Shown here piece by piece: positions 9,058-40,954 of a DNA stretch of 50,708 bases. Numbering within the stretch: position 1 is the stretch's first letter; each line of letters opens with the position of its first letter. Under the pieces are notes generated by a model that saw nothing but the letters and a program-made list of their open reading frames with translations, made no database searches and had not been told where the DNA came from. The translations under genes and the position numbers were made by a program. The DNA is taken from positions 1 through 50,708 of the IMG/VR virus record IMGVR_UViG_3300043414_000745. One strand, 5' to 3'. The DNA comes from a virus (taxonomy: Duplodnaviria > Caudoviricetes).

Positions 9058-9073
9058 AGCTTTTCTTGGGCCG
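9058..9073 (-). promoter_or_regulatory. Sigma54-type -24/-12 promoter candidate
   Basis: Minus strand CGGCCCAAGAAAAGCT (GG-N10-GC); intergenic; near-copy of the 13408 site. Confidence 0.75.
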
Positions 9074-9076
9074 CTT

Positions 9077-10069
9077 TTAGGCTAGATCTCTCATCCCGTT
9101 TGGGTTCTCTTTAGAATACTTGCCCCAGTTCTTTCCGGCTTGGGCCTCTGATTTCATGGTGAAGTTTATTCCATCTCGGCCGGTGAGAGATATTGCGAGG
9201 CAATCCTGCATGAGCTTCGCTGTTGTGCCGATATCATTATCGAGAACCAGCGCCAGAAAAGAGTCATGTTTATTGTTAATCGCCGGTAGCGTATTGCTTG
9301 GGCGTTCTCTGTTATACCTATTAATCGCGGCGTGAGTGATACACCCCACGGTGGACTGAGGAATCCATGAGATGCCTTCCCTGATATAAGAGTCAGTAAT
9401 AGTTCTCTCGAACCTACGCGGATAACCAAATAGATTCCGGAGCTCACGTTTAGCTCTAATGTTAAATTCAATTTCATCTTGCCATTCTATGATTTCGGGG
9501 AACAGTGTTGCGAAGAATCCAAGAAAGACTTTGCATTCTTGGAGACTGAGAGTCAAGGTGCCGTGACTCTGTTTGAGTGTCTGAAGCTGGAAGGTCCGCT
9601 CACGCATTCTATAAGAGGAAGCATGGCAGACCATCTTGCCGATCTTGTATTCTTTATCGGAGGATTTGATTGCTTTATCGAGCGGCTTCCAGTCTGGATC
9701 TTTTCGGAGTTCGCTTGGACTTAGGCTTTTCCAATAGCTTGGACTTTTCCCGGCGAGTGGCCATTCGTTTTGCATACTCTCACAGAAGATATGCAGAGCG
9801 ATGAAGGTATGAGGCTTGATGCCTACGTTGAATAGCTCACGATACTTACCGGGGCGCGTGAGGTTGGCCACGATCAGAGCCTCTGCGCCGCTCTGGTCGC
9901 ACTGTACGAAGCTCAGACCGGCTGGGGCGATGTAGATATCGAGGGCTTCTTTATCTGGATTCTGGAGATTCGCTCCGTAGTCGCCGAGGAACTGTCCGCT
10001 TGCAAGTCGGAAGCTTCCTGTGCCTGCTACTTTAAGCGAGGTGAGACAGTGGATGTGAGGTTGTGGCAT
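9077..10069 (-). CDS. polA: DNA polymerase family A, C-terminal (palm/fingers) half
   Basis: GTGSFRLAS...NLQNP; motif A CDQSGAEAL; motif B GKMVCHASSY; motif C KHDSFL; GKNWG terminus. Confidence 0.9.
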   Translation of the reverse strand: MPQPHIHCLTSLKVAGTGSFRLASGQFLGDYGANLQNPDKEALDIYIAPAGLSFVQCDQSGAEALIVANLTRPGKYRELFNVGIKPHTFIALHIFCESMQNEWPLAGKSPSYWKSLSPSELRKDPDWKPLDKAIKSSDKEYKIGKMVCHASSYRMRERTFQLQTLKQSHGTLTLSLQECKVFLGFFATLFPEIIEWQDEIEFNIRAKRELRNLFGYPRRFERTITDSYIREGISWIPQSTVGCITHAAINRYNRERPSNTLPAINNKHDSFLALVLDNDIGTTAKLMQDCLAISLTGRDGINFTMKSEAQAGKNWGKYSKENPNGMRDLA

Positions 10070-10072
10070 AAG

Positions 10073-10918
10073 TTAAACATCCTCACGCCATCCAATAAAC
10101 GACGCATTGAACGGGCGACCGTCGTCTGTGAGGTTGAGATACTTGATCGTCGCTTTCTTTTGGAAGTGATAATTGGGCGCGATAAACTCCTCGCGCTCTT
10201 CATCGGTGAAGCCCGTGCCGACTTCGAACGTCACGCCCCTTGAGGTGATGAACTTAAGTGCGCCTAGTTTACCCTTGCACTTGCCTTCGTCAGACATCAC
10301 TCGACCAATGCACTCGAACTCCGCATCGAGGAAAGCTTTGCGCTTCTGAAGGTTCATCGTCGAGCGTTCTTTCTCGCCCTGTGGCATATAGGATCCGAAG
10401 ACACTCTTGAGCATCTGGCCTTCATAGTTAAGGGCGAGATACTTTTCATAAGCCTTATCGAGTTCGATGCGTGACTTGCAGATTTCCCAGTCGATAAGAT
10501 ACATTCCGAAGGAAGTGTGATCATCACGGAGAATCTTGTCTAGCATAAGCATACGCGTCATGGCGTTGAACTTAGGCTCTACGATGTCGAATGCGTTGAA
10601 GGTTATCTTCTGGGCATTGGGGCCGGGATATATGCGAGTGACGGCCACTGCGCTATTGATAGACTGAAGGCTCATGCCGTGACAATACAACTCGCCGTCG
10701 ATGATATAGTCTGTCTTTGGCGAATTGATGTAGCGGAGAACTTGATTGTTCCAACGCTTGCCGTCTCGTGAATAAAAGCCTTGGCCGGGAAGATACATAC
10801 ATCTTAGGCCGTTAAGCTTTGGCATTGAGATCACGTGGCCGAACTTCGATGCGTCATATACGGCGGCGCGCATGAACGAGGCTGCGATTGATTCGTCTTT
10901 TATTTTAATATCTTGCAT
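10073..10918 (-). CDS. ATP-dependent DNA ligase (minimal NTase plus OB fold)
   Basis: Motif I PKLNGLRC, III IDGELY, IIIa FNAFDI, IV EGQMLK, V LQKRK; OB-fold VGTGFTDEER. Confidence 0.92.
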   Translation of the reverse strand: MQDIKIKDESIAASFMRAAVYDASKFGHVISMPKLNGLRCMYLPGQGFYSRDGKRWNNQVLRYINSPKTDYIIDGELYCHGMSLQSINSAVAVTRIYPGPNAQKITFNAFDIVEPKFNAMTRMLMLDKILRDDHTSFGMYLIDWEICKSRIELDKAYEKYLALNYEGQMLKSVFGSYMPQGEKERSTMNLQKRKAFLDAEFECIGRVMSDEGKCKGKLGALKFITSRGVTFEVGTGFTDEEREEFIAPNYHFQKKATIKYLNLTDDGRPFNASFIGWREDV

Positions 10919-10930
10919 AGTTTTGTTAAA

Positions 10931-12361
10931 TTAATATTCCCAAATCCACTGTTGAAATCCTAACATACCCTTTAGCTTAACCATACGACGCATCTCGAAG
11001 ATCACATCAATGGCTACGTTCTTAGGGTGCTTGATCTTGATCTTATAGAGAGCATCCCCAGCGACCGAGGGTGCGCCTTTGTCTGTTGTTTTCTCGGCCT
11101 TGTAGTGCATTTGACCATGAAGATATTTCACTACTTGATCCGGACTGCCGGGATTAAGGTCAAAGCCTACGAGAATTCTCAAGACGCGATTGAGCTGTTT
11201 GTATCTCTCTTCACAGCGTCTGACGATATAACCCCGCTTGACGGGATCGAAGTGCATTCCGTGGAGGGACATGAAGGCATAGTCTGCGAGGGATTGACTA
11301 GCTTGATCGACCGAGTCTTGAAGTCCACGGTCCCTTGAGATGAGATCAATCTGACCGTAGTAAATTTCTCGGAGGACAATAACGTCTTTAACATTGTAAG
11401 CGCGGAGCTGCTCAAATTGTGCTCTATTTCTAGGATCAAAGTTTCCTGCTTCATCTTTATGAAAGGGCCTGTTAGAAAAAAGCGTTGTTTGATGGGCCAG
11501 AGACTTCTCAGCCTCCGGAAAGATTCGATGGCCCGCGACCATGGTGTCATAGATATCATGGCCGAATGGGATTTTGTAGAAGGCTGCGAGAAAGCATAAG
11601 TCAAATAGAGCATTGTGAATTACTACGCGGCGCTTCTTCATCTCTCTTATGAAGCGAGCAAAGAAAACCACACCAACATTAAGATTGCCACCCCAATCAT
11701 ACACGGGAACAGAATAAACAGGGCTATCTCCGCATGCGATGGCGAGACAGGTGAGGGTGTTGGTCTTGGGGTGAGTCTCAATGTCGAAGAAGATTGGACC
11801 TTCGTGGTCGAAGACACGACAGGCGTCTTCTGCTCGATGGCAGTTGTAGACTTGGGGTTCAGGTTGAACTTTTTGGGGGTCATATGTTAGGAGTTTCTTT
11901 ACGTCTTGCGCGAACCAAAAGCTATAGTTAGATCGTTTCGTCGGGCTTGTGCTTTTGCCATCGTCTTTATCTAGGATGTCTTCGCCGTCGCCTTCGCCAT
12001 CAAGGGCATCTTCCATAGCCCACGCGTCTACGCAGTCTTGTGGCCAATAGGTTACGATGTATTGGGTTTTGTTTGTTGAGGTATAGACTACGCCGCGGAA
12101 AGCATCTAGGGTTTTATCTTTGGCGAGCGGCAGAAAGTCTAGGGCTTTAGCTCCGGCAAAGATGATCTTCTTGATTCCGCTTGGTTTGTTTGCGTTCTTG
12201 AAGAAATCGTCGGCAAAGGTTACAAAAATAGCAGATGGATTATCCAGGTCAAGATTATGATAAGCCAACACAGAACGAACAAAATCTCCGGCGGGTCCGA
12301 GAAGGATGCCGTTGTTTTCTTTATCAAATCGCGAAGGTCCATGTAGAACAAGAGCTATCAT
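10931..12361 (-). CDS. polA: DNA polymerase family A, N-terminal half: degenerate UDG-like domain, 3'-5' exonuclease and thumb
   Basis: UDG-like LHGPS...LLGPAG; ExoI FDIET, ExoII HNALFD, DTMVA, ExoIII YNVKD; thumb NPGSPDQV; ends at EMRRMVKLK. Confidence 0.88.
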   Translation of the reverse strand: MIALVLHGPSRFDKENNGILLGPAGDFVRSVLAYHNLDLDNPSAIFVTFADDFFKNANKPSGIKKIIFAGAKALDFLPLAKDKTLDAFRGVVYTSTNKTQYIVTYWPQDCVDAWAMEDALDGEGDGEDILDKDDGKSTSPTKRSNYSFWFAQDVKKLLTYDPQKVQPEPQVYNCHRAEDACRVFDHEGPIFFDIETHPKTNTLTCLAIACGDSPVYSVPVYDWGGNLNVGVVFFARFIREMKKRRVVIHNALFDLCFLAAFYKIPFGHDIYDTMVAGHRIFPEAEKSLAHQTTLFSNRPFHKDEAGNFDPRNRAQFEQLRAYNVKDVIVLREIYYGQIDLISRDRGLQDSVDQASQSLADYAFMSLHGMHFDPVKRGYIVRRCEERYKQLNRVLRILVGFDLNPGSPDQVVKYLHGQMHYKAEKTTDKGAPSVAGDALYKIKIKHPKNVAIDVIFEMRRMVKLKGMLGFQQWIWEY

Positions 12362-12833: not shown

Positions 12834-13349
12834 TTAAAATTCGCACAAGAGAGCGGCGGTACCCTTGACTTGAGAGAAGTCAAACTGGGTGTTGTATCGC
12901 TTGATGATGGCCTCTCCGTTCTCGTCGCGCTTTGCGAACTTGATATCGCGAGAGTTGGAAGGATCGTCGCTCACGTATTCCGGCTGCGACTGAACGAGCA
13001 TATTGAAGGCATGACCTTGCAGAGTGGACAACGCGTCGGCTACGTCGATGTCGCTGTAGTCTTCGGGCAAACCATCATACAGACCGATAACCTGCAGCGG
13101 CGTGGCAAGAAGTTCGAGGGCAGAGTCAACGCCATTCTTGTTCTCTAGCATGATGTACATGTTGCCCTTTGCACCGAGGGTCTTATAGGTTGTACCGGCG
13201 GCGATAGCAGTCTCGGGCGCAACTATCTCGCACTCACAGACAACCATCTTGAAACCCTTTGCACTCTGGCGCGTCTCGGTGCGATGCACGAGAACCTTAT
13301 ACACGTTGGCGGGGATGAAACCGAGCTTGACTTCTGTACCTTTTTTCAT
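12834..13349 (-). CDS. Putative single-stranded DNA-binding protein (DUF669-like)
   Basis: IPANVYKVLV...SAKGFKMVVCECEIV OB-type start; next to Sak4-like ATPase and exonuclease. Confidence 0.65.
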   Translation of the reverse strand: MKKGTEVKLGFIPANVYKVLVHRTETRQSAKGFKMVVCECEIVAPETAIAAGTTYKTLGAKGNMYIMLENKNGVDSALELLATPLQVIGLYDGLPEDYSDIDVADALSTLQGHAFNMLVQSQPEYVSDDPSNSRDIKFAKRDENGEAIIKRYNTQFDFSQVKGTAALLCEF

Positions 13350-13707: not shown

Positions 13708-14418
13708 TTAAGGCTTAGCCAATTCAACAGCAATCTTATTCAACGCTTTGACAACACAATTCTCCATCGGATTAGGAAGACCCCAGAAGATAGGAGTCTT
13801 TGCGGTGGTCACGCCGTCGGTCTGAGTGGCGAAGAAGTATTGTATGGTATCGCTACCTTTCTCTTTCTTTGCATACACGGACCAGACCGCGAGACACTCT
13901 GACTCGATGCCTTTGTTCGCCCACTCTTTACCTTGCACGTAGAGACGGCGACGAGTTGTCATACTGCCGTCGAGGCCTTGGATTGGGACAATTTCCTCTA
14001 ACCCCGTAATGATGACTGTCTTATCTAGCGACTTGAGATTCGTACACAAGGTCTGGATTCCATCATTGTAGTTCTTCCAGATATCAAACCCTTTGTACAT
14101 CATCTCGCACTTGACCTGAAGCTGGTCGATGGCGGCGGTGATAGAGTCGATCACGACCAGATCTTTCGTCGTGTCTTTCTTGATCTTGTTCAGCTCGACC
14201 GTGAGCTTATCATAGCTGTCGATCGGAATGACCAGTCCTTCAGTGCGCACTCGAAAGGGCATACCTTTACGCTCGGCATCGAGGATAACTGTTCGCGTGG
14301 GATCTACGTTACGGAAGGATGTAGACTTGCCGCAGCCGCTCGGACCGACGAGAGCGATCAGGGTCTTGGGCCATTGAGGTTTTGGAGTTGGGATTGTTGG
14401 GGATGTTGTAGTTTCCAT
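13708..14418 (-). CDS. AAA_24/Sak4-like ssDNA-annealing ATPase
   Basis: GPSGCGKS, ILDAE, VVIDSIT, TAKTP; synteny with PD-(D/E)XK exonuclease and SSB. Confidence 0.8.
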   Translation of the reverse strand: METTTSPTIPTPKPQWPKTLIALVGPSGCGKSTSFRNVDPTRTVILDAERKGMPFRVRTEGLVIPIDSYDKLTVELNKIKKDTTKDLVVIDSITAAIDQLQVKCEMMYKGFDIWKNYNDGIQTLCTNLKSLDKTVIITGLEEIVPIQGLDGSMTTRRRLYVQGKEWANKGIESECLAVWSVYAKKEKGSDTIQYFFATQTDGVTTAKTPIFWGLPNPMENCVVKALNKIAVELAKP

Positions 14419-15365: not shown

Positions 15366-15409
15366 TTTGAGGATGTTTTATTTTGAGGAGAAATAGATAG
15401 GGCTTTTTA

Positions 15410-15426
15410 GGCTAACCCCAAGCCAA
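15410..15426 (-). promoter_or_regulatory. Sigma54-type -24/-12 promoter candidate
   Basis: Minus strand TTGGCTTGGGGTTAGCC; intergenic, upstream of the recombination operon. Confidence 0.65.
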
Positions 15427-15929: not shown

Positions 15930-16446
15930 AAAGATTATTTTTATATTTGAAAGTAAAGCCAAAGCATTTTTGGCCTCGCTTAATTCTGTGAGAAACTGCC
16001 GAAGGATTGAGTCCTAATGCTAAGGACGCTTCTTTGGAGGAAGCATACTCTTCGCCAGTTTCTACACATATCACAGATTTCTGTAAATGTTTTCCAGCAT
16101 TAGGATAAGTAGTTTTAGATCGATTTTGATTGTTCTCTAAACATGTTACAAAACGGCAGTTACTAGGTTCGTAGTTACCATCATTATTTATGCGATCTAA
16201 TTGAAGACCTCGTTCAAATCCATTAGCTGTTGCCCACTTTGCAAAAGCCTGGAAGTTGTTTACCCATTCATGGCAGACTGTTATACCTCTACCACCATAA
16301 CGATTCCAGCTTTTGTAAGCTGGGTATTTACAACGCATAATCATACAACGATAAACATTATAGAGTGGTGTTTCTTTTCGAGCTTTCGTGCAAGGAAACC
16401 ACGATTGCTCAAATGTTATAGAAATTTTTGCGTTGATGTTAAACAT
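15928..16446 (-). CDS. Free-standing HNH homing endonuclease with NUMOD1-like C-terminus
   Basis: MIMRC...YGGRGITVCHEW...LDRINNDGNYEPSNCRF...NNQNR; VICVETGEEYASSKEA; more AT-rich than its neighbours. Confidence 0.9.
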   Translation of the reverse strand: MFNINAKISITFEQSWFPCTKARKETPLYNVYRCMIMRCKYPAYKSWNRYGGRGITVCHEWVNNFQAFAKWATANGFERGLQLDRINNDGNYEPSNCRFVTCLENNQNRSKTTYPNAGKHLQKSVICVETGEEYASSKEASLALGLNPSAVSHRIKRGQKCFGFTFKYKNNL

Positions 16447-19933: not shown

Positions 19934-20137
19934 TTATTCTTTAACCTCCACAATAAAATCAAAGTTCATTTGCCAACTATCACTCAGTCTGTTATATGTT
20001 TCCTTACCTATCTTCCATGTTCTTGGATCTCTTTTAGATTTGGTATGTCTACATTGTATAGTTACAGTATCCATATCTTTGAACGCCTTGTTTCTTAGCG
20101 TGTGATCGGGCGGCAGTTCATGCAGTTTGTATAGCAT
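19934..20137 (-). CDS. Hypothetical protein
   Basis: 67 aa ORF tiling the operon. Confidence 0.55.
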   Translation of the reverse strand: MLYKLHELPPDHTLRNKAFKDMDTVTIQCRHTKSKRDPRTWKIGKETYNRLSDSWQMNFDFIVEVKE

Positions 20138-20960
20138 ATTCAGGTAGTTCTAGTTCTCCGAGTTCTCTCTTTAGGAGAAGGTTTCTTAGAGCTCGAACAT
20201 TCCCAAAGGAGAATGTCTCGTCGCCGAAGTGTTCGCGCTCGCCAATAGGTGTCCAGTTTTCTTCTTCGATGATAGCCGCTGCGACACATCTGATCTCTTG
20301 AACTCCGCGATCCTTCAAGCTGAATGTCTTCAGCCCGAGTTCGTTGATGCGGAAGTAAAGATCCTCTCTGAACGTGCCTTCCTTTACCATCTTCAACAAG
20401 TCACGATTTGTGGCGAACACGAACCTACATTGAATAGGCACAGGATCGACCGCGCCCACTGGAAGTACGGTCTTGTCTTGTAAGACACGCAAGAGTTTTG
20501 CTTGATGCGCGAGAGGCAACTCGCCTATCTCGTCGAGGAAAGCAGTGCCCTTGCCGACTGCTCTTAGGAAGCCTACGTCGCCCCGTGATTTAGCGCCGGT
20601 AAAAGCGCCGGGCATGTAGCCAAAGAGTTCGCTTTGAAATAGAGTGTCTGTCAGACCAGCCATGTTCATAGCCTTGAGAGGCTTGCGCTTGTGTGATAAG
20701 ATGCGGGCGAGAAGCTCCTTGCCTGTGCCGCTTGGCCCTTCGATGAGTACGTTATAGCGTTGAAGACTTTCTTCGGCGTAGGTTATTGCCGACGTGAGCA
20801 TTCTCTTTGTCGCCGGGTCTTGCGTCGCGTAGGACGATGCGACATTGTGGATACTGTTCTCTTTGAGAGAGTCGCCTGTGATCTTAAGGACGTCCTTCCG
20901 TATGTTATCGAGGAAGCTATCGGCGGCCGAGGTATTGAGTACGTTTGCGTGGATGTTCAT
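20118..20960 (-). CDS. Sigma54 activator (bacterial enhancer-binding protein AAA+ domain only)
   Basis: VLIEGPSGTGKELLAR, SELFGYMPGAFTGA, FLDEIGEL..AHQAKLLRVLQ, FATNRDL, FREDLYFRI, GNVRALRN; no receiver, GAF or HTH domain. Confidence 0.96.
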   Translation of the reverse strand: MNIHANVLNTSAADSFLDNIRKDVLKITGDSLKENSIHNVASSYATQDPATKRMLTSAITYAEESLQRYNVLIEGPSGTGKELLARILSHKRKPLKAMNMAGLTDTLFQSELFGYMPGAFTGAKSRGDVGFLRAVGKGTAFLDEIGELPLAHQAKLLRVLQDKTVLPVGAVDPVPIQCRFVFATNRDLLKMVKEGTFREDLYFRINELGLKTFSLKDRGVQEIRCVAAAIIEEENWTPIGEREHFGDETFSFGNVRALRNLLLKRELGELELPEYAIQTA

Positions 20961-23908: not shown

Positions 23909-24509
23909 TTTCTTGGTGGTTATTATTTAATGACTCTATGACACCGCGAGTGTCTACGATCTTGATTACTTCTTCGATGGGAAAGTAGCAGTTGATGTTG
24001 TTGAATGCGCCTTTGAGGGCTTCGTTAAGTTGTTTTGATTTATGCAAGTAGACTTCTTCACCTTGGCTTGTGATTGCAATGGCAACTTCTGTTGCCTTCT
24101 GCCGCGTGAAGAGCTTTGCGCGAGAGAGACTGTCGCCGATGAGTTCGATGCGGAGTTCTTCCGCTTTCTTCCTGATGTAGGAAACATCAGAGGCAATGTG
24201 GTTTGCACGTAGAAGTCTCCTTCTTTCATCTGACAAGGCCCATTCGGTTGCATCCCACACGACAGAGTAGTTGTGTCCATCTTCTTCGATTCTCTGAATA
24301 TGGATATGCTCACCTGCGCAGTGAGCTTTGACCCACTCGGCTGTTTCATTTGAAGCAACAATCGCATGGGCAAGATTATTCCCTGGAGTTCTGCGGATGA
24401 AATGCCCTCGCTCTGCATCGACATGACAAGAACACGCTGGGAAGAGCAATCCCCAGAGTTGATAGCTGTTGAGTTTTTCTGGTTCTTCATGAGAGTTTTC
24501 ATTTTGCAT
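23799..24509 (-). CDS. Hypothetical protein
   Basis: 236 aa ORF directly after rpoN; its low-complexity tail overlaps the next gene. Confidence 0.6.
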   Translation of the reverse strand: MQNENSHEEPEKLNSYQLWGLLFPACSCHVDAERGHFIRRTPGNNLAHAIVASNETAEWVKAHCAGEHIHIQRIEEDGHNYSVVWDATEWALSDERRRLLRANHIASDVSYIRKKAEELRIELIGDSLSRAKLFTRQKATEVAIAITSQGEEVYLHKSKQLNEALKGAFNNINCYFPIEEVIKIVDTRGVIESLNNNHQENEQTITEQDNQSSNEVTEEHGESGQEERLAPPTAGG

Positions 24510-25788
24510 AGACTTTACGGAGATGCGAGGGTTGAATGCCTAGCTCTGCTCTGTACTTTGCGATTGTCCGCCGGGCGATTGTGTTCTTAAGCAAGACGAC
24601 GATGTCTTCGTCGCTTAGTGGTCGTGACTTATCTTCGGTTGAGATGATCTCTGAGATTTGATTCTTTATGGATAGGTTACTTTGCATTGTGTTTTGTTCA
24701 TGGTTTACGATAGCTCCGGTGAAGAAGAAGCGAAGTTCATATGTGCCGCGCGGGGTTGAGATGTACTTATTACATACTGCCCGCGAGACGGTTGTCTCAT
24801 GGATCTCACAGACGACTGCGATCTGGGCCATCGTGAGCGGCTTGAGATCGTGGATGTTGCCGGTCTTGAAGAACTCTTGTTGAAAATCTACGATAGCCTT
24901 TGAGACATTAGCTAGTGTGCTTTGCCTCTGCATGATCGATCGGATCAGAAACTTACCGGCCTTTACTTTCTCCCGCACGAACTCTCGATCCTGTGGTTTG
25001 AGCTTGTGGAGATAGCTGAGAACGTGGCTGTTGATTCGATAGACAGGAAGACGCTCGTTGGGCAGGTTGATTGTGCCGTCGGCGAGAAGAAAGACTTCGG
25101 GATCTTTAGGGATGTTATGTGGCAGAGAGAACTCGGCAGCGGGATTATGATTGAGCTTGCGGAGTTGCCTATAGAGATTCTCTATCGTCGTGAATGTCTC
25201 GTTGTATTTCTTCGCGAGCGTGGGAATCTGGCGGCGAGTAAAGAGATCTTCGTCTTGTTGAAGAATGATATAGGCAAGTGAAGAAGTATCTAACTGAAGA
25301 CACAAGCAATCAGCTAGGCCAAGAGCACCTAGCCCTTTAGGATCGAGCGTGCGGATAAAGCGCAGAGATAATCTCTCTTGCGGCGTGAGCGTATCAGGAT
25401 CAAACGGAAAGAATCCTTTCTCGTCGAGCCGATGTATGATGTTTGTCTCCAAACCTGCGATCACTAGTTCACGCGTGAGATATTCTTCTAAGGTCTCCGC
25501 GCGACCGGGATTATTCTCTAGCGGAAACTCTTCTACATACGACGGGATCGTGTTCGATAGAGAAGTCCACTGCATGTCCGCGGGCAATTCTGCCTTGTCG
25601 TTTGCATATGATATCTCTTCTTCAGACTGATTCTGATCAAGAAATTCAACGCAAGGATTATCGTTGATGAAAGACTCCATCACGGTATGGAGTTCGCAAA
25701 GTGGAGCCTGTAATAAGGCAAGACTTTGCTGAAGTTGCGGACTCAATATCAAAGACTGAGTCTGCTTTGCAGAGATGGAAAGTTTCAT
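24499..25788 (-). CDS. rpoN: RNA polymerase sigma54 factor
   Basis: Region I QTQSLILSPQLQQSLALLQ...NPCVE; LDPKGLGA..L.DCL..Q; RQSTL; LKPLTM..IA...IHETTVSRA..NKY; PLSD; RpoN box ARRTIAKYR. Confidence 0.97.
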   Translation of the reverse strand: MKLSISAKQTQSLILSPQLQQSLALLQAPLCELHTVMESFINDNPCVEFLDQNQSEEEISYANDKAELPADMQWTSLSNTIPSYVEEFPLENNPGRAETLEEYLTRELVIAGLETNIIHRLDEKGFFPFDPDTLTPQERLSLRFIRTLDPKGLGALGLADCLCLQLDTSSLAYIILQQDEDLFTRRQIPTLAKKYNETFTTIENLYRQLRKLNHNPAAEFSLPHNIPKDPEVFLLADGTINLPNERLPVYRINSHVLSYLHKLKPQDREFVREKVKAGKFLIRSIMQRQSTLANVSKAIVDFQQEFFKTGNIHDLKPLTMAQIAVVCEIHETTVSRAVCNKYISTPRGTYELRFFFTGAIVNHEQNTMQSNLSIKNQISEIISTEDKSRPLSDEDIVVLLKNTIARRTIAKYRAELGIQPSHLRKVYAK

Positions 25789-25832: not shown

Positions 25833-25849
25833 AGCTTTAGCTGTGCCAA
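25833..25849 (-). promoter_or_regulatory. Sigma54-type promoter candidate upstream of rpoN
   Basis: Minus strand TTGGCACAGCTAAAGCT, just downstream of a terminator. Confidence 0.85.
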
Positions 25850-25892
25850 CTATTGGCATGTGTGAATAGTTAGCACAGATAAAACGCCAAAG

Positions 25893-25986: not shown

Positions 25987-26631
25987 TCACACAGACTTCT
26001 TCTTCGACTCGCGCTTGGCCTTCGCGGCGCTGAGTTCGTTAGCCTTCGCGAGGAGCTGGGCAAGAGAGCCGATGAGGTTAGCCTGTTTGGCGACGGCCGC
26101 TTCCTTGTCAGACACGCCCAAAGAGCGGGCAACGTCGTCGTTCCACTCGCCAGCCATTGCGAACACGATGCTGCCAATTTCAGAACGGATGGACTCGATC
26201 TTCTTGAGGACGCTCTTTTCGGTCTCGCGGTCGGCAGACACGCCATAGATGAATGCGGCGAAATAGTCCGGAGTATTTCCCTTCGACAGATAAGCTTCAG
26301 AAGCGTCTTCGGCGATATCAAGCAAGTGCTCGCTGACCAAGTCAGACAGGGCATTCGAGATGCGCTTCGTTTCAGTGACACTACCGTCTTCATTCTTCAC
26401 CTTCGTCACGTGCTCGGTCACGACTTCAGCCAACGCCTCGCCGCGCTTGATGTAATAGGACAGATCGCTCACGGCCAGAATAGGCGCTTGAAACGAGACA
26501 GTGCGCTCTGCGCTCTTTGCGGTCTTCCGAACGTGCCGCTCGTTCGTGGTGAACGAAGGGTTGCCGTCCTTATCGCTGGTGAATACGCTTCCGGCGAAGG
26601 AGGCAACGAGTTCGAGGTTCTTAGTGCTCAT
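25987..26631 (-). CDS. Hypothetical protein, monocistronic (own promoter and terminator)
   Basis: 214 aa, Ala/Lys/Ser-rich with basic C-terminus. Confidence 0.8.
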   Translation of the reverse strand: MSTKNLELVASFAGSVFTSDKDGNPSFTTNERHVRKTAKSAERTVSFQAPILAVSDLSYYIKRGEALAEVVTEHVTKVKNEDGSVTETKRISNALSDLVSEHLLDIAEDASEAYLSKGNTPDYFAAFIYGVSADRETEKSVLKKIESIRSEIGSIVFAMAGEWNDDVARSLGVSDKEAAVAKQANLIGSLAQLLAKANELSAAKAKRESKKKSV

Positions 26632-26759: not shown

Positions 26760-26812
26760 AAAAAAACTCCACAAAGAGAAGCCCTCCGTGAAGGGCTTGT
26801 GCTTTGTGGAGT
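26760..26812 (-). terminator. Intrinsic terminator
   Basis: ACTCCACAAAG..AAGCCCT/AGGGCTT..CTTTGTGGAGT with a minus-strand T tract. Confidence 0.8.
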
Positions 26813-27802: not shown

Positions 27803-28030
27803 TTAGATCCAATCTATACGTGAGAGTTTAACTAAGGAAGACGATACTGCGAAAGTGCCTTTCATGCGCCAAGCACGTGCCTTGTGGCATGAGTGATTGT
27901 CTTTCTTTGCAGCACGTTTGGACGTGTACTTTATAGCAAGCTTGTTGAGAAGCTTTGTGGCTTGTGATGCGCGGAGATGAGTTTGAGCCTGCAATGATTT
28001 ATCAAATGCGGCAGTCGGATTGGAACGCAT
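27803..28030 (-). CDS. Hypothetical basic protein (start uncertain)
   Basis: MRSNPTAAFDK... within ORF 27803..28132. Confidence 0.45.
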   Translation of the reverse strand: MRSNPTAAFDKSLQAQTHLRASQATKLLNKLAIKYTSKRAAKKDNHSCHKARAWRMKGTFAVSSSLVKLSRIDWI

Positions 28031-28613: not shown

Positions 28614-28925
28614 TTATTCGATAGCGTTGACGGCCTTGACTGCTGCAACGGCTTTCAGGTGAGCAAGGAAAGCCTCTTCCATGGCCGCAAGGGCAACAAG
28701 CCGTTGGTAATCCTTGCGGATAGCCGTTGGAATGATCGCGGCCGTTTTCCAAACTGTTCCGGTGACACGGGCACGGGCAGCTGCACGGCCTTTGTCCGAA
28801 GCCGCATCGGAAATAAATTTTTCGGCATCGGTGACTGCATTACCGCTTTCAGCCATAAAGGCCGTCACTGCCCGGGCTTGGTCAACGAAAGGCAGAGTTT
28901 GGTAGTTTTTGGAGTCAATGGTCAT
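28614..28925 (-). CDS. First leftward (putative immediate-early) protein, Ala-rich
   Basis: MTIDSKNY..., 103 aa; flanked by a promoter candidate and a terminator. Confidence 0.7.
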   Translation of the reverse strand: MTIDSKNYQTLPFVDQARAVTAFMAESGNAVTDAEKFISDAASDKGRAAARARVTGTVWKTAAIIPTAIRKDYQRLVALAAMEEAFLAHLKAVAAVKAVNAIE

Positions 28926-29078: not shown

Positions 29079-29131
29079 CCGGCCAAAACGCCAAAACCCC
29101 AATGAATAACGATAACGTAAAATTCACAGAA

Positions 29132-29219
29132 TGCGTGAGATTCACGCACCATGCGTCAAATTCACGCTTTAACGTTATTCATTGGCATTTAACGCCTATA
29201 AATGCGTCAAATTCACGCA
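29132..29219. promoter_or_regulatory. Three 17-bp palindromic sites, putative enhancer (UAS)
   Basis: TGCGTGAGATTCACGCA (29132), TGCGTCAAATTCACGCT (29152), TGCGTCAAATTCACGCA (29203). Confidence 0.7.
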
Positions 29220-29639
29220 TAACGCATAAACGCACAGAAAGGGCCCGCCAGCGCGTTTTCCCTTCAAATGGCTATCTACACTCCAAAACGCTATCAAAAC
29301 GCCTAGAAACAGGCTTTAAACGCCAGCAAACGCTATTCACGGCAACAGACGACAAGGCAAAACACAAGAAAACAAGTGTAAACGATCCCAGGTAAACATT
29401 ACACTTGTAATCTTGTCAACCAGCAGAGCAAAAAAGCGCAGAAAACAGGGAAAACAGGCTCTTAACTCAGTTAAAACGATAATTGTAATATAATATGGTT
29501 AATGCACTTGGCATGGGGGGTACCCATTTATTTTTTATATTATATACTATATATTAACCTTAACCAACAAGACGATACGTTATTCAAGCTAATAAAGACA
29601 CAAGCCCAATTTACCCAATAGGCAATAACCATATTAAAG

Positions 29640-29922: not shown

Positions 29923-29938
29923 TGGCATTAGACAAGCT
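29923..29938 (+). promoter_or_regulatory. Sigma54-type promoter candidate for the packaging operon
   Basis: TGGCATTAGACAAGCT, 15 nt before the terS ATG. Confidence 0.8.
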
Positions 29939-29952: not shown

Positions 29953-30519
29953 ATGAGTGACCTAATGATGCGTAATCAGATTTTGGGGTTAAGGCGGGCC
30001 GGAATGTCTGTTGAAGAGATTTCTGTGGCGCTTGAGATAGACGTTATGGTGGTTAAGCTTGCCTTGGAGGCGCCAGGTGGAAGCGTGGCTGTGAGGAAAG
30101 AAGCCCGTGCGGAAAAAGAAGAAGACATAACCGACGACGTATCCGAACAAGAAGCTAAGGAGATGATGGGCATCATCAAGAACATAGCGCGCGACGAAGA
30201 GAGCGGCGTATATGCCCGGCTGAACGCGGCTAAGTATGCGCACGGCGCCAAGCGAGGTTATCATAAGCGGCATCTGGATATGAACGTAGGCTCGGGCGAA
30301 TTGCTGCTTAAGATCAACGAAGCCTATATGTCCGCGTCTATGCGTGCACGGGCAGCCTTAACTGGCCAATCACTTACCGCCAAAGAACTCACCGTCATAG
30401 AGGCCCCAATAACCGTAGAGGCGAACGCTGTAGAACCTATTGTAGAACCCCAGCTAATCGATCAGACTACGCAATCACAGCCTGCGGCGCTGAATCCCGG
30501 CCCTTTAAAATATGATTAA
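29953..30519 (+). CDS. Putative terminase small subunit
   Basis: N-terminal HTH (LRRAGMSVEEISVALEI); overlaps the terL start. Confidence 0.65.
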   Translation: MSDLMMRNQILGLRRAGMSVEEISVALEIDVMVVKLALEAPGGSVAVRKEARAEKEEDITDDVSEQEAKEMMGIIKNIARDEESGVYARLNAAKYAHGAKRGYHKRHLDMNVGSGELLLKINEAYMSASMRARAALTGQSLTAKELTVIEAPITVEANAVEPIVEPQLIDQTTQSQPAALNPGPLKYD

Positions 30520-32296
30520 GACTCCCATCTCAGCCGACACACTTAAGTTAGTTCAAGCGCGCCGTTCCTTAGAAGCAGAGAAAGCAGCGGATAAAGCGCG
30601 TGCAAGAGAGGCCAAGAAGAAAGCCACAGACGTTCCTGAACTCGCGGCTAAGGTGGGTCTGGAAGTGATTGCAGATTCTACAGCAGAACCTGCTAAAAAC
30701 AAACGCTACATAGCCCATCAGATCGATACCCCGGCGGATCTTCTTCTCGCTCACCGGCCGGATCTGAAGCTATATAGATGGCAGGCTGAGACGCTCTTTC
30801 AACTCGCAGGATACACAGATATCAATGACCTCGATAAGCCCAAAGAAAGACCCACCGACAAGACTCCGCTATACTACAACCTTGTCGCAGCTAACGGCAG
30901 CGGAAAAGATCAGGTTGTTATTAGTGCCTTCGCTGTCTGGTTTTGCCTTTCCAAAGTCCGTTCTCGATGCGTCATTACGTCATCTTCGTACGAGCAGCTT
31001 AAAGATCAGACGTACAAGTACATAAAGAATATCTGTGAAGAGATCAATGCGTCCTATGGCCGGAAGGTATTTGAGATCGTAGAGTTCCTCATTACGTGCA
31101 ACGATACCGGCTCTGAGATCAAATGCTTCGTGACAGATGATCCAGGCAAAGCCGAAGGGCGACATCCGTTCGACGAGGCGGGCGCAGAGATGGCTGTGAT
31201 CGTAAACGAAGCTAAATCTATCACAGACGAAATGTTCCAAGCCTTCTCGCGTTTCACAGGCTATAATTATTGGCTCGAAATCTCCTCGCCCGGCAAGAAC
31301 TCTGGGCACTTTTTCAAGCGCTGTACGCGGGCTAAGAAAGCCTTTCCTGACCCGCTCGAAATAGGCGAGTTTTACTGGCGTCGTGTCACGGCATTCGACT
31401 GCCCGCATCTTCTCGGCAAACACATTGAGCATCTTAAGGACGAACACGGTGAACAATCCCTTATCTATCGAAGTCAAGTACTGGCTGAGTTTACCTCACT
31501 CGACGAAGCTGCATTCATCTCTTCAACGCTCTTCGAGAATTACCCAAACAATCCACCGCGTACATTTGGATTGCCCAATCGAGCGGGCATCGATCTATCG
31601 CTCGGCGGCGACGAGACTGTGGCGTACTTCTTTATCCATGGAAAATTCCACTTACGAACAACAAAGATTCGTAACGAGGCAATTCTCCACAATCAGATCA
31701 TCAGTTGGATTAAAGAATTCAACGTCACGCCCTCTAACGTATTCATTGACGATGGTGGTCTGGGGCGACCAATCGTGCAGCGTGTGCAAAATGCGGGTTA
31801 TGATGTCGTGCCGGTACGAAACGAAGCCCGATCAAGTAACCCGCATTTCTACAAGAACAGAGGCGTTGAAAACTGGAATCGTATTAAGCGTGCTCTTGAA
31901 GACCGTGCGTTTCCTGTCATCAGCGACGATCTTACTCGCCAACAGCTTTGCACGCGCGGCTTCTCTGTTAAGGGAATCGTTACGCTTTTAGAGCCCAAAG
32001 CTGAGATGCGCTCTCGCGGCTTAAGTTCACCTGACAGAGCAGACGCTCTCGCGCTCTGTTTTGACAGCATTCCTCTGTCGGTTTTCAAGGAAGACATTCT
32101 ACACACGACAGAGCCCGCGAGTAGGTTTGCTGAGCTGCTAGAAAAGAACAAGAAAGGACCTCTGACGTTTGATGAAAAGACAGAGCTCACAATTCTCTGG
32201 GGTGAGATGACACACAGACCGGCACAAGAAACGCTAAATTCGGCTGAGCCGCGTGAAGAATTACGTGGGCAGTATCATCAATTCATAACCACATAA
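30512..32296 (+). CDS. terL: Terminase large subunit
   Basis: YRWQ, AANGSGKD, VIVNEAK (Walker B variant), ISSPG, GIDLSLGGDET, IDDGGLG, SPDRADALAL. Confidence 0.92.
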   Translation: MIKTPISADTLKLVQARRSLEAEKAADKARAREAKKKATDVPELAAKVGLEVIADSTAEPAKNKRYIAHQIDTPADLLLAHRPDLKLYRWQAETLFQLAGYTDINDLDKPKERPTDKTPLYYNLVAANGSGKDQVVISAFAVWFCLSKVRSRCVITSSSYEQLKDQTYKYIKNICEEINASYGRKVFEIVEFLITCNDTGSEIKCFVTDDPGKAEGRHPFDEAGAEMAVIVNEAKSITDEMFQAFSRFTGYNYWLEISSPGKNSGHFFKRCTRAKKAFPDPLEIGEFYWRRVTAFDCPHLLGKHIEHLKDEHGEQSLIYRSQVLAEFTSLDEAAFISSTLFENYPNNPPRTFGLPNRAGIDLSLGGDETVAYFFIHGKFHLRTTKIRNEAILHNQIISWIKEFNVTPSNVFIDDGGLGRPIVQRVQNAGYDVVPVRNEARSSNPHFYKNRGVENWNRIKRALEDRAFPVISDDLTRQQLCTRGFSVKGIVTLLEPKAEMRSRGLSSPDRADALALCFDSIPLSVFKEDILHTTEPASRFAELLEKNKKGPLTFDEKTELTILWGEMTHRPAQETLNSAEPREELRGQYHQFITT

Positions 32297-32299: not shown

Positions 32300-32572
32300 A
32301 TGGATAACATCGACGAGTTTCTAGCCAGTCTTTCTCCTGAAGAAACCAAATATCTGCATGAGAAAATCATGGCAGGTGAACAGGGCGAAGACATGACCGC
32401 TGAGATGGAAGAGCCTAACGCTTCCGAAAGCGACGAATACACCAATGGCAAGGGCCCGAACAACGAGGCCAAAGGTGAAAACTCTACCGTGCCCAAGGCG
32501 CTCGCTAAGAGTGTCGTTAAGGGTAAGAACATTCCTCTCAAGGAATCAGAAATGTTCGACGAGGAAGAATAA
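32300..32572 (+). CDS. Acidic hypothetical protein
   Basis: 90 aa between terL and the portal candidate. Confidence 0.7.
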   Translation: MDNIDEFLASLSPEETKYLHEKIMAGEQGEDMTAEMEEPNASESDEYTNGKGPNNEAKGENSTVPKALAKSVVKGKNIPLKESEMFDEEE

Positions 32573-35740: not shown

Positions 35741-35893
35741 ATGCAACGATTGTCAGACCGAATCTCCAAGAGAGATTCCGCTAGAAGCTCTGCTCTCTAT
35801 GCGGTTACGGCTAGGACAGACCTAACCAATAACCGTTTGAGATGTCAGGGCTTTTTTATTGCCCTGATAAATCAAACAAACCGAAAGAATACA

Positions 35894-37728: not shown

Positions 37729-37758
37729 CAGCCCACTCGAAAGAGTGGGTTGCTTTTT
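37729..37758 (+). terminator. Intrinsic terminator after the capsid operon
   Basis: CAGCCCACTC GAAA GAGTGGGTTG CTTTTT. Confidence 0.88.
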
Positions 37759-37798: not shown

Positions 37799-37815
37799 TT
37801 GGCAATTCGGCAGCT
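37799..37815 (+). promoter_or_regulatory. Sigma54-type promoter candidate for the tail fibre operon
   Basis: TTGGCAATTCGGCAGCT between the terminator and the ATG at 37828. Confidence 0.75.
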
Positions 37816-37827: not shown

Positions 37828-39114
37828 ATGTCTAATCTTTCAACTCTACCTAAAGGCGACTCAGCCTGGCTTCTTCGGAAAGCTATTGAGCGAATCATAG
37901 ATCAAGTCTCTGTTTTAGGGACTAACATCGGCGTCTCGACGTCGGGAAATAGTGCAAACACTCAGATCATTTTTAATGACGACGGTACTTTGCGGGGCGA
38001 TGCCGGTCTGACGTACAACAAGACGACCGATGCGCTGACCGTTGCCGGACTTGTTACCGCTGGCTCCGCCACCATCACCGGCGATCTGACGGTGGATACG
38101 AACGTGTTGAAGGTGGACAGCGCGAACAATCGGGTGGGTGTTCTGACCGCTTCACCTACTCATTCGTTGGATGTTCGCGGAATCATTAAGTCAAACGGTA
38201 CTTTCACCGCTTATATCAACCCGAGTTTTAGTGGTGCTGCTGCAATTCAGACAGAGAGTGCAGAGTCTTTGATTCTAGCTCCTTCTGGCCAAGAGTCTTT
38301 GCGGTGCGCTCCGTCCGGTGTTTATACATTCCTCGACGGCGCAGGCGGCACTCGAATGACCCTGAACTCCACGGGGTTGGGCGTGGGTATTGCTCCTCAA
38401 TCTGGAATGAGGCTCTCGGTCAGTGGAAACATTGGTTATATAGGTTCGAGTCGCGCAGATTTCCTGAACTCAGATAATACTCAAGCATACGGACTCCAAG
38501 CAACCGGAAGCGGTGGTAACGCATTACTTACATTTGTTCAGCTTGGTGTTGCAACGCGATTGACCCTCGATGCGTCAGGGAATTTGCTGTTGGGAACGAC
38601 GGGCGGACTTGTCTCCAGCATTTCTCGTTTGCGAGTTTCTGCTACAGGTGCTGCTGCGATTGACGCAAAAACCACAGTTGCAGGGGATGGTGTTATAGAC
38701 GCGTGGAACTCAGCGACTTCTGGTGATAATCAATTTATCCGTTTCTGGACGGAAGCCGCAGTTACCTCTAGAGGATCAATATCATACAATCGAGCAGGCG
38801 GTCTGGTTGCTTACAATGTTACCTCTGACTATCGTTCAAAGGACATCATCGGACCTGTTTCCAACAGCGGTTCGCTGATTGATTCGTTGAAGGTCTATTT
38901 CGGAAAAATGCACGGCGCGACGATTGAGCGTCCGATGCTCATTGCCCACGAAGCGCAAGAGGTTGCTCCTTACGCTGTCACCGGACTGAAGGACGAAGTC
39001 GATGCCGATGGCAAAGACAAGTACCAGCAAATGGATGTCTCTTCGTTTGTCCCTCTGTTGATTGCCGAAATCCAATCGCTCCGCACCCGCGTCCAAACCC
39101 TCGAAGCCCGCTAA
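37828..39114 (+). CDS. Tail fibre with C-terminal peptidase S74 intramolecular chaperone
   Basis: Fibre repeats (NNRVGV, RLTLDASGNLLLGTT); TSDYRSKDI...LIAHEAQEVAPYAV...VPLLIAEIQSL. Confidence 0.9.
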   Translation: MSNLSTLPKGDSAWLLRKAIERIIDQVSVLGTNIGVSTSGNSANTQIIFNDDGTLRGDAGLTYNKTTDALTVAGLVTAGSATITGDLTVDTNVLKVDSANNRVGVLTASPTHSLDVRGIIKSNGTFTAYINPSFSGAAAIQTESAESLILAPSGQESLRCAPSGVYTFLDGAGGTRMTLNSTGLGVGIAPQSGMRLSVSGNIGYIGSSRADFLNSDNTQAYGLQATGSGGNALLTFVQLGVATRLTLDASGNLLLGTTGGLVSSISRLRVSATGAAAIDAKTTVAGDGVIDAWNSATSGDNQFIRFWTEAAVTSRGSISYNRAGGLVAYNVTSDYRSKDIIGPVSNSGSLIDSLKVYFGKMHGATIERPMLIAHEAQEVAPYAVTGLKDEVDADGKDKYQQMDVSSFVPLLIAEIQSLRTRVQTLEAR

Positions 39115-39755: not shown

Positions 39756-39759
39756 AATA

Positions 39760-39793
39760 AAGGGCTAGGTATCTAAGGTATCTAGCCCTTTTT
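39760..39793 (+). terminator. Intrinsic terminator
   Basis: AAGGGCTAGGTA...TATCTAGCCCTT TTT. Confidence 0.8.
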
Positions 39794-39802
39794 ACTTTCT
39801 TG

Positions 39803-39973: not shown

Positions 39974-40218
39974 AAACACTTATAGAATTTCTAGGTAAAT
40001 TCTTTCAAAATAATGGGCATCTTCGGGGTGCCCTTTATTTCTCAATCGCAGCATTGACTCCAATGGCTGCGTCTTTTGTAGAATGGGCCGCTCAAGATGG
40101 CCCGAAGAATTGGTATGAAGTTATCGCGCTTGCGTTTGGTTCGCTAATCAGCGGCCTTACGGCAGTGCGTGCATATCTCGACACACACCTCACTAACGGA
40201 ACAAACACAAATGAATAA
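39970..40218 (+). CDS. Membrane protein, holin-like
   Basis: Two predicted transmembrane segments. Confidence 0.6.
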   Translation: MKTLIEFLGKFFQNNGHLRGALYFSIAALTPMAASFVEWAAQDGPKNWYEVIALAFGSLISGLTAVRAYLDTHLTNGTNTNE

Positions 40219-40390
40219 CCGCAAAACTACTCTCGCTGGAATCGGTGCTATCCTTGTGGCTGTCGGAGCCGCTTTGAAAGCCGTGTTCGATGGCGATCCC
40301 TCTACGACTTTCGACATCACCTCAACCGTGACCGCCATTAGCGCGGGCATTGGATTGATCCTCGCAAAGGATGCGTCTACTAAAGAATGA
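40211..40390 (+). CDS. Putative holin
   Basis: NRKTTLAG...two TM segments...GIGLILAKD. Confidence 0.65.
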   Translation: MNNRKTTLAGIGAILVAVGAALKAVFDGDPSTTFDITSTVTAISAGIGLILAKDASTKE

Positions 40391-40647
40391 GCTTTCTCTC
40401 AGATCTCGTCATGAAAATTCTGCGCTGGTTCTATGAACTGTCGCAGAAAGATCTCACCTCACAAGATGCAAAAAAGGATGACAAACTTAAGCAGAATCTG
40501 CTCGATCGCGTTGACGCTTATGAGCGCGAGTTGCTCGTCGAGAGTGATCTACGTGCCAAGTGGACAGCCAATGAGGTTAGCAGAGCCGACAAAAGCCCAC
40601 GTGTGGACTTTAGATTCAAGCGGCCAAGCGATCAAATCAAAAAATAA
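40387..40647 (+). CDS. Putative i-spanin (Rz-like)
   Basis: Weakly hydrophobic N-terminus then charged helix; overlaps a lipoprotein ORF. Confidence 0.45.
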   Translation: MSFLSDLVMKILRWFYELSQKDLTSQDAKKDDKLKQNLLDRVDAYERELLVESDLRAKWTANEVSRADKSPRVDFRFKRPSDQIKK

Positions 40648-40690
40648 AGTACTCATCCAAGAAGGATGGTATGTTCTACCTAAAGAATAA
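40478..40690 (+). CDS. Putative o-spanin lipoprotein (Rz1-like)
   Basis: ICSIALTLMSASC lipobox-like signal in a different frame, overlapping the previous ORF. Confidence 0.55.
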   Translation: MTNLSRICSIALTLMSASCSSRVIYVPSGQPMRLAEPTKAHVWTLDSSGQAIKSKNKVLIQEGWYVLPKE

Positions 40691-40692
40691 CT

Positions 40693-40935
40693 ATGGAATA
40701 TAGAGGCGAGAAATTCTCTGGTTATAATAAACCAAAGAGCACGCCGGGAGCTTCTAAGAAGTCTGCTGTGCTTGCAAAAGAAGGGAACGTCGTAAAGCTT
40801 GTGCGCTTTGGCGATCCTAACATGAGCATTAAGAAACATATTCCTGAACGCAAAGCTTCTTTCCGTGCGCGACATAACTGTGCAGAGCCTGGAACAAAGC
40901 TAAGTGCAAAGTATTGGAGCTGCAAAGCTTGGTAG
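40693..40935 (+). CDS. Conserved basic phage protein (DUF6321-like)
   Basis: GYNKPK.TP...KK.AVLAK...VRFGDPNM...RKASFRARH.C...SAKYWSCKAW. Confidence 0.75.
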   Translation: MEYRGEKFSGYNKPKSTPGASKKSAVLAKEGNVVKLVRFGDPNMSIKKHIPERKASFRARHNCAEPGTKLSAKYWSCKAW

Positions 40936-40937
40936 TT

Positions 40938-40954
40938 TTGGCCGCGTCTTTGCT
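40938..40954 (+). promoter_or_regulatory. Sigma54-type promoter candidate (canonical TTGC -12)
   Basis: TTGGCCGCGTCTTTGCT, starting 3 nt after the upstream stop codon. Confidence 0.75.

Follow-up and report, generated by a model that had tools for sequence, protein, structure and literature searches.

Conserved -24/-12-type promoter sites with an A-rich -12 flank in a freshwater phage encoding sigma-54 and its activator: probably not the product of a retuned phage sigma factor

Introduction

The window analysed in this study, i.e. the whole 50,708-bp stretch of IMG/VR record IMGVR_UViG_3300043414_000745 (Duplodnaviria; Caudoviricetes), is the complete virus record of an uncultured freshwater phage with 48.8% G+C. 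The phage encodes a sigma-54 factor (RpoN) together with an AAA+ activator, and its gene gaps contain a series of -24/-12-type promoter sites in which the -12 element mostly reads AGC instead of TGC. An earlier note on this DNA had described ten such sites and had attributed their shifted consensus to a phage RpoN with altered -12 specificity, governing a partly orthogonal regulon. Here we describe the sites, their conservation in related phages and their occurrence in a sister phage, G008, which has no sigma-54 gene. In view of these comparisons, a retuned phage sigma factor is probably not the cause of the unusual consensus.

Results

Gene layout and the phage sigma-54 system

The leftward genes (7277-28925) make up the replication and regulation side of the genome. 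They encode a DEAD/ResIII helicase, a PD-(D/E)XK nuclease, an AAA_24 protein, a ferritin-like protein, a DUF3987 protein and a split family-A polymerase with the ligase between its halves. The rightward genes run from 29953 over the end of the record to 7223 and form the structural side. None of the eight structural-side proteins tested had a Pfam match, and no named PHROG function was found for the proteins in the terS, terL, portal, scaffold and capsid positions; only the tail-fibre-like protein matches named PHROGs on this side. 'Terminase', 'portal' and 'capsid' are therefore positional labels with gene order as their sole basis. The AlphaFold2 model of the capsid-position protein, from an alignment of five rows, has a mean pLDDT of 28 and is unusable. 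Non-coding DNA accounts for 7.58% of the window by the curated gene calls, and no tRNA genes were found in it. Merely 6 of 62 genes are preceded by a Shine-Dalgarno-like motif; the upstream regions are A-rich.

Two leftward genes encode the regulatory pair:

20118..20960, minus strand: phage activator, a bacterial enhancer-binding protein (bEBP) of 280 aa; PF00158 at 1.9e-49
24499..25788, minus strand: phage rpoN, 429 aa; activator-interacting, core-binding and DNA-binding domains

The RpoN assumed in the earlier note is indeed encoded as a full protein, and so is an activator with GAFTGA. The three RpoN domains are found by Pfam with E-values of 2.3e-12, 2.8e-17 and 2.2e-48, all above the cut-offs, and the protein aligns end to end with E. 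coli sigma-54 chains, the HETTVSR motif being present. Its helix-turn-helix (HTH) reads HETTVSRAVCNKY as compared to HESTISRVTTQKY in E. coli sigma-54, and its RpoN box reads ARRTIAKYR as compared to ARRTVAKYR. Apart from one Cys, the recognition helix corresponds to the consensus HE[ST]T[VI]SRA..[NG]KY of 149 other RpoN cluster representatives. At positions conserved to 75% or more among 141 bacterial sequences, only ten residues are specific to the clade, and none of the ten lies in the recognition helix. The phage RpoN is distant from cellular relatives, with at most 45% identity beyond its own cluster; for P0121, the nearest RpoN outside the family (43% identical), no viral contig was found.

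The activator carries the motifs GPSGTGKE (Walker A), FLDEIGEL (Walker B), GAFTGA (GAFTGA loop), FREDLYFRIN (arginine finger) and GNVRALRN (sensor II). Pfam recognises AAA+ families only, and neither a C-terminal DNA-binding HTH nor an N-terminal sensor domain was detected. By its predicted domain content the protein is a member of the known bEBP subclass without a DNA-binding domain. Relatives of RpoN were found on 12 viral contigs (74-81% identical) and relatives of the activator on 29 contigs (92-96% identical), the activator being far more conserved across the family than RpoN.

Promoter-like sites and their frequency against chance

All ten 16-mers quoted in the earlier note are present in the window, those given at 37799 and 40938 on the plus strand actually beginning at 37800 and 40939. 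They lie wholly in gaps of the curated gene calls and each faces the next gene; A stands at -14 in eight of the ten, and five read AAGCT. One further site, at 14578, had been overlooked. The sites, with their scores in the weight matrix described below where they rank above its background, are:

9058..9073, minus strand: class B promoter-like site CGGCCCA-N4-AAGCT; 20.1 bits
13408..13423, minus strand: class B promoter-like site TGGCCCA-N4-AAGCT; top matrix score, 28.9 bits
14578..14593, minus strand: class B site TGGCAAAAGATAAGCT, overlooked before; 23.3 bits
15410..15425, minus strand: TGGCTTGGGGTTAGCC, part of a conserved 27-nt element (15399-15425); promoter role uncertain
25833..25848, minus strand: class A promoter-like site TGGCAC-N5-AAAGCT, heading the rpoN ... 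helicase ... activator operon; 22.4 bits
26728..26743, minus strand: class A promoter-like site upstream of gene 25987-26631; 25.6 bits
29062..29077, minus strand: TGC-type site TGGCAT-N5-GTGCT, 138 nt upstream of gene 28614-28925
29923..29938, plus strand: class A promoter-like site before the first plus-strand gene, 29953-30519 (small-terminase position); 19.8 bits
35725..35740, plus strand: TGGCATATCGTTAGCA, preceding a structured leader and the capsid-position gene
37800..37815, plus strand: TGGCAA-N5-CAGCT site upstream of the tail-fibre-like gene 37828-39114 (PHROG tail-fibre matches)
40939..40954, plus strand: canonical-type site TGGCC-N6-TTGCT upstream of gene 40965-41588 and the tail-side block

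Class A sites (TGGCAY-N5-AAGCT; 25833, 26728, 29923) have the extended family form TGGCAY-N5-AAGCTYTA..TTT, and class B sites (YGGCCCA-N4-AAGCT; 9058, 13408, 14578) the form YGGCCCA-N4-AAGCTCC..CC. Other AGC-type sites are 35725 (TAGCA) and 37800 (CAGCT), giving eight AGC-type sites in the window when 14578 is counted. The -24 half is canonical in class A and partly so in class B (TGGCCC). Among the ten quoted sites the -12 flank is TT or GT at 40939 and 29062 only, and AA, TA or CA at the other eight. The claim of ten shifted-consensus promoters holds for seven conserved AGC-type sites; 29062 and 40939 are TGC-type, and 15410 may not be a promoter.

The motif as originally defined, GG-N10-GC, shows neither an excess over shuffled sequence nor an enrichment in gaps. 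The window has 337 matches, as compared to a mean of 343.3 over 100 dinucleotide shuffles, of which 69 reach 337; 26 of the 337 lie wholly in gaps (binomial p 0.49), 20 of them in sense. TGGC-N8-NGC has 37 matches, nine of them in gaps and all nine in sense (p 0.0014). When these are split by the base at -14, the form with A lies in gaps in seven of ten cases, always in sense (p 1.4e-6), the form with T in two of nine, and the form with C or G in none of 18. TGGC-N7-AAGCT occurs five times against 0.47 expected, a count reached in 0/100 shuffles and 0/200 Markov simulations; the canonical TGGC-N7-TTGCW occurs once against 1.17 expected. No excess over shuffles was found for GGC-N8-AGCT or for TGGC-N7-AAGCT with one mismatch. 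The TGGC patterns miss 9058 because this site reads CGGC. Sigma-70-like sites are not in excess (16 versus 19.3 in shuffles), and Bacteroidota-type primary promoters (TTTG ... TAnnTTTG) have no sense-oriented match in gaps.

A weight matrix was built from relatives only (23 distinct 22-mers), the window being left out of training. It scores six window sites at 19.8-28.9 bits (13408, 26728, 14578, 25833, 9058 and 29923, in descending order), and with the next best match at 11.3 bits a gap of 8 bits separates them from the background. Matches of 10-11 bits are also seen inside genes, at 32220-32241 (plus strand), 16036-16057 (minus strand) and 27850-27871 (minus strand) (CGGCACAAGAAACGCT and others); these could be internal promoters of low strength or could have arisen by chance. 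The one at 32220 stands 59 nt upstream of gene 32300-32572.

Conservation of the promoter slots in related phages

The comparison covered four full-length relatives (G001, G002, G011, G012) and a number of fragments, in a slot table anchored by the N-terminal 50 residues of whichever protein lies downstream. This table is cleaner than another grouping of the sites, which mixes paralogous promoters for slots 9058, 13408, 25833, 26728 and 29923. In all slots GG and GC are kept exactly 10 bp apart while spacers and upstream flanks vary. A site is present in 22/22 relative contexts of the 13408 slot, where the upstream flank has diverged and where the activator-only clade records G008, G009 and L055 read TGGCA..TAGCT. 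The 9058 slot has a site in 15 of 17 relative contexts, AAGCT in all 15, and lacks it in G008 and G009. At the rpoN slot a site is found in 16/16 relative contexts, AAGCT accounting for 9 and AGGCT for 8 of 17 contexts. The capsid slot (35725) is kept letter for letter in 5/5 relatives, so that 6/6 RpoN-encoding genomes are identical, and the 37828 slot keeps GG and GC in 5/5 relatives with three versions of the spacer. The terS slot has a site in eight of nine contexts; among the eight motif-bearing contexts of RpoN-encoding relatives four read AAGCT and four TTGCT, GTGCT or ATGCT, and G008 reads TTGCA. The 26728 site is conserved with a variable spacer, and the 14578 site is kept in 9/9 relatives listed, which read TGGCCCA. 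At 40939, G001 has TGGCCCTCTCATTGCT, in which the canonical TTGCT is kept and the spacer changed; the single ortholog of 29062, in L009, reads TGGCATCGTGGTTGCT with a canonical TTGCT.

The preference for A at -14 is real and extends across the family. The proposed reach of the regulon over replication, packaging, capsid and tail genes is likewise borne out in so far as conserved -24/-12-type sites head the replication, rpoN-helicase-activator, packaging-side, capsid-side and tail-side blocks, packaging and capsid being named by gene order only. Class B is confined to one part of the family: two to three such sites occur per record in 7/7 RpoN-encoding records, where they head replication genes in every record examined (7/7), and none occurs as an AGCT site in the RpoN-less clade, whose orthologous slot reads canonical TGGCA(C/T).

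A sister phage without sigma-54

G008 is a complete phage of 49,848 bp with direct terminal repeats and 100% estimated completeness. It has collinear homologues of 28 of the 66 open reading frames of the window and an activator 62% identical to the one described above. No Sigma54_DBD candidate was found in G008; the best tblastn match to RpoN has an E-value of 3.5, and there is no room for the gene at the syntenic place. In G009, a 47%-complete relative of G008, RpoN is absent across the syntenic stretch.

The promoter type is nevertheless there. The G008 helicase-activator operon, syntenic to window 25833, is headed by the AAGCT-type site TGGCACAAGCTAAGCT; the slot of the 13408 type reads TGGCACACCACTAGCT, followed by the same TCCTCCCATTTG block as in the window; and the capsid slot reads TGGCACAGCACTAGCA (TAGCA type). 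Among TGGC-N8-NGC sites of G008, A stands at -14 in 5/8 of those located in gaps as compared to 4/39 of those within genes. Since AGC-type promoters occur in this RpoN-less phage, the A-rich -15/-14 flank probably belongs to the promoters of the wider phage group and does not depend on the phage RpoN. On this comparison AGC-type promoters appear to work, or at least to persist, without a phage sigma-54.

Neighbourhoods of individual sites

Three sites follow terminators, as had been noted before. An intrinsic terminator at 26767-26793 (z -5.5) lies directly before 26728, and another at 37729-37752 (z -7.35) directly before 37800. At 25833 the hairpin overlaps the site: it spans 25835-25890 on the minus strand with a 14-bp stem (-25.9 kcal/mol, z -7.0), and its 3' arm holds the -24 element of the rpoN promoter. 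It could be a terminator or an operator gating rpoN; relatives have a different inverted repeat (TTGGCAT..ATGCCAA) just upstream.

The 9058 site precedes a 75-aa gene (8812-9039) and the DUF3987 primase/helicase-like gene. After its AAGCT, the 13408 site carries a conserved TCC..CCCATTTGTCGG block; it precedes gene 12834-13349 and the split polA/ligase block. The 14578 site is located within the PD-(D/E)XK nuclease gene, at its 3' end, and stands 160 nt upstream of the AAA_24 gene 13708-14418.

The 27-nt element at 15399-15425 is identical letter for letter in the window, G004, L009 and L012, with diverged flanks, and precedes the nuclease gene in just 3 of 24 contexts. A reading as hairpin or terminator was rejected, its folding being no better than that of shuffles (z -0.16). 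The element is functional in some way, possibly as a TAGC-type promoter, and its sporadic spread suggests a mobile or optional signal.

Upstream of 29062, by 70-160 bp, stand three 8-3-8 palindromes of the ATGCGTGA-N3-TCACGCAT type (window 29095-29220), which are kept in L009 (about 270-400). Their layout is enhancer-like, though the phage activator is without a DNA-binding domain.

Predicted start points, leaders and RNA

Transcription starts were predicted 12 nt after the C of the -12 element. The start codon follows this C by 15-16 nt at terS (ATG), 14-15 nt at 37828 (ATG) and 12 nt at 40965 (GTG); the alternative TTG start at 40914 is closed by a stop in G001. At 9039 the distance is 20 nt in the window and 13 nt in several relatives, and the G008 start at 33451 likewise lies 12-20 nt after the C. 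The mRNAs at these four slots (terS, 37828, 40965, 9039) would thus be leaderless or nearly so, with predicted leaders of 0-8 nt.

The capsid-side unit is built differently:

35751..35893, plus strand: conserved structured 5' leader of about 143 nt, which follows the 35725 site and is supported by covariation

Compensatory changes are found in 11 of the 40 predicted pairs of this leader and in 5 of the 7 pairs of its first hairpin, whose pairing is kept through three versions of the sequence. Rfam has no match for it. The covarying leader begins at the predicted start of the 35725 unit, and the capsid-position protein starts at ATG 35894 (MPATWDL...). ATG 35741 or TTG 35750 as the gene start, which would make the mRNA leaderless, was rejected, as the frame is closed in G002 and the covarying leader lies there.

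Four metatranscriptome runs, available as contigs only, hold relatives of the phage (6-9% of sampled words). In run X4 the contig over 34313-35151, in the upstream gene, has a depth of 4.1, and another, which begins at 35759, has a depth of 46.2. This hints weakly at a transcription start around 35751; contig depth is unable to rank genes.

Host candidates

A near-identity search of the phage collection gave no match. Proteins in that collection that match RpoN and the activator share less than 60% identity with them and, by title and annotation, look like bacterial DNA filed under phage names; an Atlas search returned generic sigma-54 clusters only. A high-GC Phycisphaerales metagenome-assembled genome (MAG), which encodes a sigma-54 of its own and contains one phage-like contig of 4.4 kb, includes fragments of a related phage (L024 / G006 contigs C152 and C68), binned there only as separate contigs of small size. 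As an indication of the host this is a weak hint at best. In this MAG and a second bacterial genome the canonical TGGCAY-N5-TTGC is enriched (21 versus 9 in the control, and 11 versus 3), and the AAGC form is not (13 versus 16, and 5 versus 4). If the MAG were the host, phage and host promoters would have different flanks; no weight can be given to so weak a link.

Discussion

The consensus of these sites represents a new form of sigma-54 promoter sequence. We think it fairly likely that the sites are genuine sigma-54-type promoters, that together they form a regulon of sigma-54 and the activator, and that the A-rich -12 flank belongs to the promoters or to the host and not to the phage sigma factor.

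The earlier note had traced the flank to a phage RpoN with altered -12 specificity for AGC. On such a reading, host sigma-54 would read AGC sites poorly and the phage sigma would read host promoters poorly. Several observations speak for this: A occupies -14 in 7/9 TGGC sites in gaps, and none of the 18 sites with C or G there lies in a gap; AAGCT dominates in five slots across all RpoN-encoding relatives; the phage RpoN is no more than 45% identical to its counterparts beyond its own cluster and has a rare Cys in the recognition helix; and the MAG and the second genome are enriched for the TTGC form, not AAGC. Yet the same helix otherwise follows the bacterial consensus, with E, R, K and Y kept, and orthologous slots flip between A, T and G at -14, T being found in 4/8 terS contexts and AGGCT in 8/17 rpoN-slot contexts of RpoN-encoding relatives. 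The window itself holds a conserved TTGCT site at 40939. The RpoN-less G008 shares the promoter type in the same slots. Moreover, with rpoN itself placed behind an AAGCT promoter, an orthogonal code would have no way of starting on its own. Altered -12 specificity is thus improbable, and the partly orthogonal regulon derived from it loses its ground as well, given that AGC-type promoters are present where the factor is absent and that the specificity residues are those of the consensus. An unusual consensus alone is no evidence for an orthogonal sigma factor. It is also conceivable, if doubtful, that the bias was taken over from the host lineage, whose sigma-54 promoters would carry A at -14 and whose consensus both phage clades and the phage RpoN would follow. 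This would account for a bias common to RpoN-less and RpoN-encoding phages, and the scarcity of Shine-Dalgarno motifs (6/62 genes) would fit a host group with little-studied expression signals. However, the sole host link consists of the small separate phage contigs in the Phycisphaerales MAG, which is itself enriched for canonical TTGC. Flavobacterial sigma-54 promoters are described as typical -24/-12 elements (PMC9723704), and the gaps hold no Bacteroidota-type primary promoters in sense.

That the motifs are not promoters at all, serving another phage protein or acting as RNA processing or termination signals which happen to contain GG-N10-GC, is very unlikely. In favour of this reading, the bare motif occurs at chance level, three sites adjoin or overlap strong hairpins, and conserved blocks reach about 20 nt past the GC. 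Against it, such signals would hardly explain why the 10-bp spacing of GG and GC is kept while spacers change, why the -24 half is the canonical TGGCA(C/T), why 9/9 sites match the orientation of the downstream gene or why start codons stand at the distance expected for sigma-54 starts; both proteins that promoters of this kind need, RpoN and an activator, are phage-encoded. A private specificity of the phage RpoN might instead reside at -24. Bacterial sigma-54 promoters have 'conserved GG and TGC elements' according to PMC3844500, where the bottom-strand T of the A:T pair after GGC is contacted by sigma-54; class B carries C at this position. Host sigma-54 would then start the class A rpoN operon, and phage sigma-54 would open a class B middle regulon that the host factor reads poorly. 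We regard this as rather unlikely, while noting that class B, on a single clade contrast, is the one feature to follow the phage RpoN.

Several points weigh against the reading we favour, that of sigma-54-type promoters whose flank is a promoter or host trait. G008 provides a single clade contrast, and its host may differ. AAGCT is commoner in the RpoN-encoding genomes, G008 having mostly TAGC; this preference and the restriction of class B to RpoN-encoding records leave room for recognition specific to the phage RpoN. The Cys in the recognition helix is rare (1/149 others), and Val/Cys in the preceding helix are unusual. With matrix scores of 10.7 and 9.6 bits, 35725 and 37800 fall within the background and therefore rest on conservation and position. 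The RNA data are contigs without 5' ends that may contain DNA, and parts without cover are uninformative. Use of AGC-type sites by the host sigma-54 is a presumption. Finally, as rpoN and the activator both lie behind sigma-54-type promoters, a first round of expression needs read-through or host factors.

If the sites are indeed such promoters, the phage family would have most of its transcription units served by sigma-54 RNA polymerase, with the phage-encoded activator opening the complex. The operon of rpoN and the activator may first be expressed via the host sigma-54 or by read-through past a leaky terminator at 26767-26793, after which the activator would open all -24/-12 sites from solution. 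The HTH has been placed 'around -14', and the loops of the activator close to -12, by structural studies (PMC5505868), which makes an effect of the -12 flank on activation plausible. The sigma factor would read GG at -24 and GC(T) at -12 and would tolerate A, T or G at -14, the A-rich flank being kept for closed-complex stability or promoter strength with a solution-acting activator and not for factor choice. The phage RpoN would add to the sigma-54 supply in a positive-feedback operon instead of providing a private promoter code.

Bacterial sigma-54 promoters follow the consensus TGGCAC-N5-TTGCW, examples being glnAp2, pspA and nifH. The phage sites resemble them in the 10-bp distance of GG and GC, in the TGGCA(C/T) of class A, in the T or A after GC, in their co-oriented upstream position and in the cognate sigma-54 and GAFTGA AAA+ activator encoded nearby in the phage. 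They differ in having AA, TA or CA and not TT at -15/-14 in 8/10 sites, in the C within the -24 element of class B and in the very short or absent mRNA leaders predicted at four slots; upstream activator sites would be unneeded with an activator that acts from solution. Other activators lacking a DNA-binding domain are known, namely FlgR of Helicobacter pylori, CtcC of Chlamydia and FleT of Rhodobacter. Like these, the phage protein has an AAA+ core with GAFTGA and no C-terminal HTH, and activation from solution would be expected at all cognate promoters; unlike these, it is phage-encoded, is only 280 aa long and lies inside an operon starting at a sigma-54-type promoter. Phage sigma cascades are known from SPO1 (gp28 and gp33/34) and T4 (gp55 with the sliding clamp), whose factors belong to the sigma-70 family. 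By analogy, the present phage may likewise use an encoded specificity factor to redirect host core polymerase to middle and late promoters. It differs from them in encoding a full sigma-54 with an ATPase and in sharing its promoter type with a sister phage that lacks the sigma gene. No paper on a phage-encoded sigma-54 was found in our literature search, which drew on a library largely without subscription journals. Engineered sigma-54 variants (R456H/Y/L) owe their orthogonality to changed RpoN-box arginines and rewired -24 bases (PMC12096077). Common to them and the present case is the notion that a cell may contain two sigma-54 factors, the second having a promoter code of its own; as compared to these variants, the phage RpoN keeps ARRT and its promoters keep GG, with no sign of orthogonality.

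If the proposed regulon is real, an abundant environmental phage would possess a compact, enhancer-independent sigma-54 expression system. It would offer eight to ten natural promoter variants together with a natural control, the sister phage with an activator and no sigma gene, and these bear on the under-studied role of the -12 GC flank in closed-complex locking and activator response. Such elements would also be synthetic-biology parts beside the engineered orthogonal sigma-54 variants (PMC12096077).

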